64,000 nt of DNA, from the IMG/VR virus record IMGVR_UViG_3300045988_010208, one strand, 5' to 3'. The notes beneath the pieces were generated by a model. That model was not told the origin of the DNA. It ran no database searches and worked only from the letters and a program-made list of their open reading frames with translations. Positions 5,738 to 5,869 of the stretch are shown in pieces; the first letter of the stretch is position 1; each line of letters begins with the position of its first letter. The DNA comes from a virus. Taxonomy: Duplodnaviria; Heunggongvirae; Uroviricota; Caudoviricetes. The position numbers and the translations under genes are program-made.

Positions 5738-5869
5738 CAGAAGACCGTTTACAGCAAAACTTTAACAATCTATTTCTCCGGTAAAGAAAAGGCGAAGGTT
5801 CGATTCCTTCACTCGGCAGATGTCGAGTTGGTGTAATGGTAGCACTTAAGATGATAAACAACGGTCTGG
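5738..5869. repeat. Spacer element D: CAGAAGACCGTT...ACAGCAA...AACGGTCTGG, containing tRNA-half-like segments in permuted order
   Basis: Stem AGACCGTT/AACGGTCT (8 bp); interior has T-arm-like GAAGGTTCGATTCCTTC + ACTCGGC followed by GTCGAGT + D-arm-like TGGTGTAATGGTAGCAC. Confidence 0.55.

Follow-up and report, generated by a model that had tools for sequence, protein, structure and literature searches.

A candidate YrlA-type Y RNA with a tRNA-like module downstream of a Ro60-like gene in Felix O1-like phages

Y RNAs of the YrlA type (Rfam RF02553) have been described in Salmonella, Mycobacterium smegmatis and some phages (Chen et al. 2014, PMC4201824; Wang et al. 2018, bioRxiv 312249). In these RNAs, a variable "AS" stem-loop separates two conserved ones, T and D, and a V region, itself variable, lies upstream; the RNAs are encoded near Ro60 on the same strand and are modified by TruB and DusA (PMC4201824). 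In Salmonella Typhimurium YrlA the arms are AC (15-27/83-93), T (33-49), AS (50-64), UA (65-66) and D (67-81), and the paper on the YrlA crystal structure reports the same arm order, with a UA linker before the D arm, and proposes that YrlA arose from a dimeric tRNA. The AS of M. smegmatis YrlA has 7 bp, and this RNA is cleaved by RNase P and acquires CCA in vivo (PMC4201824). Among phages, Thermus phage phiLo encodes a Ro60 homologue with adjacent Yrl1/Yrl2, for which hijacking of host PNPase has been proposed (PMC12135203), while the Felixounavirus Bas63 encodes a Ro60-like protein just upstream of its tRNA genes, gp130, that counters the Ppl defence (2024 preprint, PMC11482910). The Bas63 authors guessed that Y RNAs are hidden among those tRNA genes (PMC11482910). 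Here, we analyze a 64,000-nucleotide (nt) stretch of a tailed phage (IMG/VR record IMGVR_UViG_3300045988_010208; hereafter the window) and an element within it, element D at 5736-5871. With a probability of roughly 0.8, we interpret D as a YrlA-type, Y-RNA-like noncoding RNA in which 5794-5845 is a tRNA-mimicking effector domain.

The region around element D (5590-6018) matches 252 phage records, nearly all of them Felix O1-like myoviruses (Felixounavirus and relatives), and is conserved at 95 to 99% identity in 203 Felix-like records. Felix O1-like phages have a classic place in typing and therapy. Element D sits in a cluster of 25 phage tRNA genes that all lie on the + strand (4864-10286; ARAGORN). 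Neither D nor the three smaller elements introduced below (A, B and C) carries an annotation in any phage record examined; if the interval is annotated at all, spurious "hypothetical protein" open reading frames (ORFs) overlie it. The parts of element D are as follows.

5736-5871, + strand: element D, the whole candidate Y-like RNA with its tRNA-like insert (RNAfold minimum free energy [MFE] structure; RNAalifold on 12 Ounavirinae variants; frame scan)
5736-5738/5869-5871, + strand: outer 3-bp helix (RNAfold)
5739-5741 (AGA) against 5868 (G), + strand: 3x1 internal loop (RNAfold)
5742-5749 (AGACCGTT) / 5860-5867 (AACGGTCT), + strand: closing stem (sequence reading, RNAfold)
5750-5757, + strand: conserved single-stranded motif UACAGCAA (family consensus U-W-C-A-G-C-A-A), directly 3' of the 5' strand of the closing stem
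5773-5789, + strand: V hairpin (UUUCU/AGAAA) at the tRNA variable-arm position (RNAfold); variable in Mooglevirus Moogle
5794-5810, + strand: T arm GAAGG/TTCGATT/CCTTC, tRNA positions 49-65, loop UUCGAUU (sequence, alignment, covariance model)
5811-5828, + strand: acceptor-like stem-loop (AS), with 3' strand ACTCGGC (5811-5817), loop AGAT (5818-5821) and 5' strand GTCGAGT (5822-5828)
5829-5830, + strand: linker U8-G9 (sequence reading)
5831-5845, + strand: D arm GTGT/AATGGTA/GCAC, with A14, G18, G19 and A21 present

The MFE structure of 5736-5872 (-31.2 kcal/mol) contains exactly the closing stem, T arm, AS and D arm together with the V hairpin; it is a cloverleaf without an anticodon arm, with the 3-bp outer helix and the 3x1 internal loop at its base. 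The order of T arm, AS, U-N linker and D arm is what a tRNA-shaped core shows when its entry point lies at the anticodon stem. The termini of D pair as the closing stem, and a loop caps the acceptor stem, leaving no free CCA end. A first-pass annotation, made by a model from the letters alone, had described tRNA halves in permuted order, and most of its description holds. The T arm followed by ACTCGGC at 5794-5817 is read directly from the sequence, the 4-nt linker AGAT leads into GTCGAGT, the two acceptor strands form 7/7 pairs with one G-U, and the enclosing stem that it described as covarying is the closing stem. Sequence reading and RNAfold agree with it that no anticodon stem-loop lies between the two halves, and find none around them either; because this arm is missing, a functional permuted tRNA is as unlikely as the annotation supposed. 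ARAGORN, which it had named as a check, calls no tRNA at 5794-5845, with relaxed thresholds included, and the Rfam tRNA model finds no complete tRNA there, which rules out an ordinary or intron-containing tRNA. The sole Rfam match is a partial tRNA of 22 bits at 5762-5811, covering the V hairpin and the T arm.

The core nucleotides of tRNA (U54-U55-C56-R57-A58, G53:C61, U8, A14, G18-G19 and A21) are present in the window and in 14/14 modules of a set chosen partly on those features. No close parent exists among the 25 resident phage tRNAs, the best likeness being 14/24 (5' half) and 19/24 (3' half). A recent copy of a resident tRNA is thereby ruled out, and the "Gln/Glu-type" label that had been given to the D arm is not supported.

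Element D resembles YrlA in its series of parts: a V region, a T arm, a closed acceptor-like stem-loop of variable length, a two-base U-N linker and a D arm. In both, the ends of the RNA pair into a module that binds protein in YrlA and would do so in D; both are encoded on the same strand as, and within a few kb of, a gene of the Ro60 type, and both have smaller Y RNAs (candidates, in the window) without a tRNA-like domain alongside. The differences lie outside the tRNA-like core. D is enclosed by what we call the frame, a variable 7- to 8-bp stem followed by UWCAGCAA, with a G after the 3' strand; the frame has a conserved AGR...YCU-G stem base and UWCAGCAA in place of GNCGAAN0-1G. The proposed partner of D is of the DUF2828 type rather than Pfam TROVE, and the window holds four copies interleaved with tRNA genes. 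Two relatives of the module (loci L029 and L079) match RF02553 in local searches at 39 bits (E values of 1.6e-7 to 4e-5), below its gathering score, and the RF02553 alignment to members of the family spans T, AS and D and leaves out the outer stem. Because the protein-binding frame and the protein subfamily differ while the tRNA-like core is of the YrlA type, we keep the module apart from RF02553 membership.

The locus also shares with phiLo a phage-encoded Ro60 homologue and adjacent Y-like RNAs. However, the phiLo protein is a recognised Ro60, and the phiLo RNAs were chosen by a CGAA bulge and a stem-bulge-stem shape, with no tRNA-like domain described (PMC12135203). The permuted tRNAs of Cyanidioschyzon merolae and some archaea likewise encode the 3' half before the 5' half, but they possess a complete anticodon arm and mature through a circular intermediate, whereas in D the termini of the RNA itself occupy the place of the anticodon arm.

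The protein-coding gene upstream of D is the second part of this comparison.

3283-4698, + strand: gene for a 471-aa Ro60-like protein (DUF2828 and DUF7788), with a predicted TROVE-like HEAT-repeat ring and a vWA domain with a DxSxS metal-binding motif

Element D begins 1038 nt past the stop codon of this gene, on the same strand. The protein matches Pfam PF11443 (DUF2828) and PF25043 (DUF7788) and belongs to PHROG 850, "RNA-binding protein"; the family is large, with 2274 clusters at E values of at most 1e-5 and 710 phage records. A profile search of PDB sequences returned Ro60 as the best match but with an E value of 1.1, so that sequence alone falls short of Ro60. An AlphaFold2 model built with 36 homologues (predicted local distance difference test score of 87.4) gave seven Foldseek matches in the PDB at E values of at most 0.001, all of them Ro60/TROVE, including Xenopus Ro60 (2i91_A, the best TM-score at 0.66), the Ro60 of Thermus phage phiLo (9KOP) and Deinococcus radiodurans Rsr. 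The metal ion-dependent adhesion site residues D279, S281, S283, T349 and D381 are invariant in the 36 homologues. On the evidence of the predicted structure, the product of 3283-4698 is a structural homologue of Ro60. We regard Bas63 gp130 as orthologous to the window protein, based on its published description and the near-identity of the gene across the genus. This upstream gene, together with an arm order matching that of YrlA-type Y RNAs, is the decisive context that the first-pass annotation did not include.

If the module were decaying, its arms should not be maintained in related phages. At the same site, between element C and a long hairpin as in the window, Suspvirus SUSP2 has an AS of ACACGT-TACG-GCGTGT and Mooglevirus Moogle has ACCCTTC-GCCAAACA-GAAGGGT, each with the T and D arms unchanged. 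Thus, the AS stems of three Ounavirinae genera are wholly different yet complementary, while the T and D arms are kept; the V region is variable in Moogle. The consensus that RNAalifold predicts for 12 distinct Ounavirinae variants comprises the closing stem, the T arm, AS and the D arm; in AS, three pairs are altered on both sides. The module is under structural selection, and because the AS has been replaced compensatorily between genera with the T and D arms constant, it is not decaying. The first-pass annotation had left open a pseudogene or a tRNA mimic, and had asked whether related phages have an intact tRNA at this position. Suspvirus and Mooglevirus instead have the same permuted module with compensatory changes in AS; of the two options, the mimic is the correct one, as structural selection and the recurrence in the same frame beside Ro60-like genes of unrelated phages show, and the pseudogene is rejected by covariation and recurrence.

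An independent model agrees with this assignment. We built a covariance model from 10 modules at non-Ounavirinae loci, trimming the AS loops to 4 nt, which affects loop columns only. Its top match in the 64 kb of the window is 5789-5848, at 58.4 bits (E value of 3.9e-14), well outside what chance would give; the next matches reach at most 33 bits, 25 bits lower, and are ordinary tRNA-tRNA junctions. Across 85 loci, matches of at least 43 bits in gene-oriented loci all fall on the gene strand. MAFFT alignments of whole elements and modules misaligned the variable AS loops, and the statistics given here come instead from our own register-exact tables and from the model with trimmed loops.

The frame around D is not unique within the window. 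The pattern CAGAAGACC...GGTCTGG occurs in four copies, which correspond to D and three smaller elements.

5031-5106, + strand: element A, candidate small Y-like RNA without the tRNA-like insert (YrlB-like); frame stem 5037-5043/5096-5102
5197-5261, + strand: element B, candidate small Y-like RNA; frame stem 5203-5209/5251-5257
5649-5726, + strand: element C, candidate small Y-like RNA; frame stem 5655-5661/5716-5722

All four have an identical predicted fold at the base (RNAfold), their outer helices covary (GAC/GUC, UGC/GCA, AGC/GCU and UAC/GUA), and each has (U)WCAGCAA directly 3' of the 5' strand of the stem. A position profile of 80 unique frames gives the consensus A-A-G-R-N4-5-U-W-C-A-G-C-A-A ... 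N4-Y-C-U-G, and a strict frame scan of the window finds A to D and nothing else on the + strand. Like YrlB, which shares the Ro-binding motif of YrlA, A to C share the frame of D and carry a short hairpin insert, but their sequence motif differs from that of YrlB and other small Y RNAs. By analogy, elements A to C would be small YrlB-like versions with the same putative protein-binding frame as D.

To place the frame in a wider context, we examined 80 loci from IMG/VR plus the loci of named phages, and scanned for the frame in 86 loci encoding the protein family. The scan returned 114 frames on the gene strand against 5 on the opposite strand and 1 to 2 in shuffled sequences. Frames lie upstream or downstream of the DUF2828 gene, mostly close to it: 60 of 91 non-redundant elements are within 500 nt of the gene, and in 49 of 80 non-redundant loci one or more frames lie no farther than 1.5 kb away. 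Their inserts range from about 20 nt to structured RNA of 250 nt. Of 52 loci whose retrieved flanks (up to 4 kb per side) are free of tRNAs, 29 have the frame, which therefore tracks the DUF2828 gene rather than tRNAs. The T-AS-D module recurs as well. With a scanner requiring a T arm, a perfect 6- to 7-bp hairpin and a D arm, we recovered another 11 modules from 8 loci; each lies on the gene strand, and the opposite strand yielded nothing of equal quality. All 11 lie inside a frame, in the order 7- to 8-bp closing stem, UWCAGCAA or a near variant, linker, module, linker, 3' strand and G. The DUF2828 genes of Mycobacterium phage Rumpelstiltskin, Listeria phage LP-125 and Campylobacter phage CP30A are flanked by two or three frames each, and one of the Rumpelstiltskin frames holds a full T-AS-D module. 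Elements A to D belong to a widespread, apparently unannotated RNA family with its own frame signature.

A 183-kb phage contig (L121), retrieved only by way of the T- and D-arm sequences of the window, encodes a true TROVE Ro60 (2024-3535, - strand; PF05731, E value of 4.6e-34) whose C-terminal domain is DUF7788. Three YrlA-type modules, on the same strand and starting 185 nt after the TROVE gene, are found there (1038-1839, - strand). In one of them the T arm is identical to that of D and the D arm differs by one loop base. Their frame is different, with a conserved UGAUGAWAGAGUAGAG-like 5' region. L121 thus provides a bridge from the window module to the canonical Ro60 system.

The LP-125 locus (L123; features at 1429-1980, 2623-2890 and 5813-7024) has further neighbors. 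About 1 kb upstream of the DUF2828 gene is a ROOL RNA (87 bits, slightly under the gathering score; E value of 3e-16), the interval between the two holds three CAGCAA frames, and an RtcB ligase gene 1.3 kb downstream of the DUF2828 gene recalls the bacterial rsr-yrlBA-rtcBA operon.

Several observations weigh against reading D as a Y RNA of this type. The 471-aa protein has no match to Pfam TROVE (PF05731) and matches only PF11443 and PF25043. RF02553 (gathering score of 69 bits) has no match in the window, not even when the search is narrowed to 171 nt and E values of up to 10 are admitted. The canonical Ro-binding motif GNCGAAN0-1G is found in 0 of 105 frames; the window has a look-alike with one mismatch, (A/G)CAGAAG, at 5737-5743 and at the equivalent positions of A to C. 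Under the strict definition, the gene lacks any frame within 1.5 kb in 31 of the 80 non-redundant loci. The Levitt pair 15:48 of the window, A15/C48, is noncanonical; over the 14 modules this pair is G:C in 5, A:U in 3, A:C in 4 and something else in 2. Finally, the evidence that D would be a discrete RNA species bound by the 471-aa protein is genomic.

Among other explanations, the one that survives best, though we consider it unlikely, is that the frames act in cis on the processing or stability of the tRNA-cluster transcript, serving as nuclease entry or stop sites and unrelated to the upstream protein. In the window the frames are indeed packed between tRNAs in one apparent transcription unit. 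Against this stand the 29 tRNA-free loci with a frame, and a conserved single-stranded 8-mer with modular inserts of up to 250 nt better suits the RNA of a trans-acting ribonucleoprotein. Type III toxin-antitoxin-like RNA repeats, terminators and RNase III sites were dropped as explanations of the frames on account of the Ro60 protein fold, the single-stranded 8-mer and the modular inserts.

A second possibility, to which we give slightly less weight still, is that D becomes a split tRNA-like molecule: RNase P would cut 5' of G5822, the 3' strand would be trimmed and receive CCA, and the pieces would stay paired and be charged or used as a tRNA. It refines the Y-RNA interpretation and does not truly compete with it. 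The main determinant for RNase P is an acceptor stem of 7 bp, the M. smegmatis precedent shows that such cleavage, and the adding of CCA, occur in vivo, and 4 of 14 AS loops start with N-CCA, for which the chance expectation is 1/64 per loop (about 6e-5 overall). These loops (L003 6466-6480, L055 5587-5593, and L079 5867-5875 and 8551-8556) continue with a 2- to 5-nt spacer; loop and spacer resemble an encoded tRNA 3' end followed by an inter-tRNA spacer, which fits a tandem-tRNA origin and possible RNase P/CCA processing in some members. On the other hand, SUSP2 has a 6-bp stem with a stable UACG tetraloop, one L079 module (L079b) has a GAAA loop, and one L055 module (L055a) has a 3-nt loop. 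Because of these loops, RNase P cleavage cannot be general, and because the anticodon arm is absent, decoding by the split form is impossible. An RNase P-split, CCA-tailed form is possible for some members.

A rearranged, decaying tRNA pseudogene, left without function by a tandem tRNA duplication or deletion, is very improbable. It has in its favor that the first part resembles the 3' half of a tRNA and the second part the 5' half, and that AS loops reading N-CCA plus a short spacer look like tRNA-tRNA junctions (Moogle GCCAAACA, L055 GCCAATT, L079 ACCAACTAT and CCCAAT), as would be expected from a dimeric-tRNA origin of the kind put forward for YrlA. We therefore regard tRNA ancestry of the module as likely, but not present-day decay: the invariant tRNA core bases are all intact, the AS stem has been replaced compensatorily in three genera, the layout recurs in unrelated phages, always on the strand of the Ro-like gene and always in the same frame, no resident tRNA is close enough to be the parent, and the high identity extends over 203 Felix-like records.

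Equally hard to sustain is the proposal that D supplies the acceptor piece for a two-piece (circularly permuted) transfer-messenger RNA (tmRNA), paired with a tag-like frame at 6435-6470 that reads ANDNVFLAVA followed by two stop codons. D and a two-piece tmRNA do share the placement of the T arm and acceptor 3' strand before the acceptor 5' strand, and ARAGORN confuses the two in Moogle, where its permuted tmRNA call joins the T arm of D, ACCCTTC and GCCA to the tag. Genome announcements report ssrA in Felix O1 and Moogle, and the tag of the window differs from that of Moogle by one synonymous and one stop-to-stop change only. However, G3:U70 is found in 0 of 14 modules (the window has C3-G70), the AS loop of the window (AGAT) lacks CCA, D has neither a tag nor a pseudoknot domain, and the acceptor loop is usually closed in the modules. 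D and the tag are about 570 nt apart, with three tRNAs and a strong promoter between them, and, from what is generally known of tmRNA, the full D arm and the closing stem occupy the place of SmpB. Because the "5' tRNA domain" of the Moogle call falls within tRNA-Lys, that call is a chimera, as are the ARAGORN "permuted tmRNA" calls in Felix O1-like phages. The genuine permuted tmRNA of contig L033, in contrast, shows G3:U70, ACCA and a nearby 5' strand.

That L033 tmRNA (257-707) is in two pieces and carries the tag ANTNFALAA; on the same phage contig are a DUF2828 gene and, at 3430-3539, a Y-like RNA whose T arm is accompanied by a degenerate D arm. In the window, 6399-6588 is a tmRNA-like mRNA-like domain without a recognisable tRNA-like domain, following the strong promoter at 6268-6296; it contains a resume-like AATAAATGCAAACGACAA, and its tag frame is conserved in Moogle. 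It scores 16 bits with Rfam tmRNA (E value of 0.002) and 24 bits with tmRNA_permuted. The ARAGORN "ssrA" calls of Felix O1 and Moogle consist of this domain chained to arbitrary T arms.

Returning to D as a YrlA-type RNA, expression could begin at two predicted promoters.

4717-4745 and 4808-4837, + strand: two sigma-70-like promoters (consensus scan, 10/12 matches each)

A + strand scan found no terminator-like site between these promoters and the next strong promoter, at 6268. Elements A to D would thus be transcribed together with the phage tRNAs and could be excised by the host tRNA-processing enzymes that release the neighboring tRNAs. The binding site of the Ro60-like protein would comprise the closing stem, at whose base the A-U, G-C and R-Y pairs are conserved, the unpaired 3' G and the single-stranded UWCAGCAA, so that in D the stretch 5750-5757 is the proposed recognition site. 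By analogy with described complexes, the L-shaped mimic may display a tRNA elbow without an anticodon or CCA, and may link the Ro-like ring to a tRNA-binding enzyme or nuclease, in the way that Ro60 is held to PNPase by Y RNA; alternatively, the mimic may be a decoy for such an enzyme. The analogues for this step are the Ro60-Y RNA-PNPase complexes of D. radiodurans, Salmonella and phage phiLo (for phiLo, PMC12135203), and Hughes et al. suggested that YrlA could inhibit anticodon nuclease. The role served could be tRNA surveillance, repair or anti-defence during infection.

A broader proposal is more tentative, and we hold it at somewhat less than even odds. The stem and UWCAGCAA frame may define an undescribed, phage-wide class of modular Y-like RNAs, occurring in phages of Proteobacteria, Actinobacteria, Firmicutes and Campylobacterota, that are partners dedicated to Ro60 proteins of the DUF2828 branch and have interchangeable effector inserts (short hairpins, tRNA mimics and structured domains of 100 to 250 nt). 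In Felix O1-like phages, the Ro-like protein would then use D as an adaptor or decoy to act on host tRNA-directed enzymes or on defence, including the Ppl counter-defence of Bas63 gp130. We found no paper identifying these RNAs in the literature searched, of which coverage was partial, and "undescribed" is meant within that scope.

The analysis supplies coordinates for the Y RNA candidates that the Bas63 authors only guessed at, along with a testable motif. It suggests that the large DUF2828 family, annotated as "RNA-binding protein," has a conserved RNA partner, one that it probably binds, with a simple signature missed by current Rfam models, and that tRNA mimicry by Y RNAs reaches many phage lineages. 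A lytic phage with a knockout phenotype also offers a convenient system for studying the function of the YrlA tRNA-like domain.

A few features of the surrounding sequence deserve mention. Immediately 3' of element D is a long, conserved and covarying hairpin (5871-6014, -50 kcal/mol). An internal branch of it at 5973-5991, AGAC-CUUAAGCAA-GUCU-GG, resembles a miniature frame with the motif inside the loop, and the equivalent position in Moogle reads AAACC-CUUUAGCAA-GGUUU-G; this hairpin may be a fifth RNA of the A to D set. Mechanical ORFs at 5044-5283 and 5709-5966 (both - strand) overlap the Y-like RNAs, and several GenBank records label the noncoding stretch "hypothetical protein." In the Moogle record, the strand given for tRNA features is wrong relative to ARAGORN calls.

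Two tRNA-like sequences lie further downstream. At 6589-6671, where Moogle and VpaE1 have tRNA-Arg(UCU), the window has a sequence missed by ARAGORN, in which the acceptor stem, UCU anticodon arm, T arm and CCA are present, the D arm is absent and there is a long extra region. It is directly followed by an HNH-like ORF (6686-7033) with a weak Pfam HNH match (E value of 0.0068, below the curated cutoff). At 7173-7250 is a tRNA-like gene that scores 23 bits with the Rfam tRNA-Sec model and has a CCA (Trp) anticodon, within a loop of apparently 9 nt, and an odd D region. tRNA-Trp is otherwise lacking among the 25 called tRNAs, and the gene is conserved in Yersinia phage P778 (L004 8414-8500).

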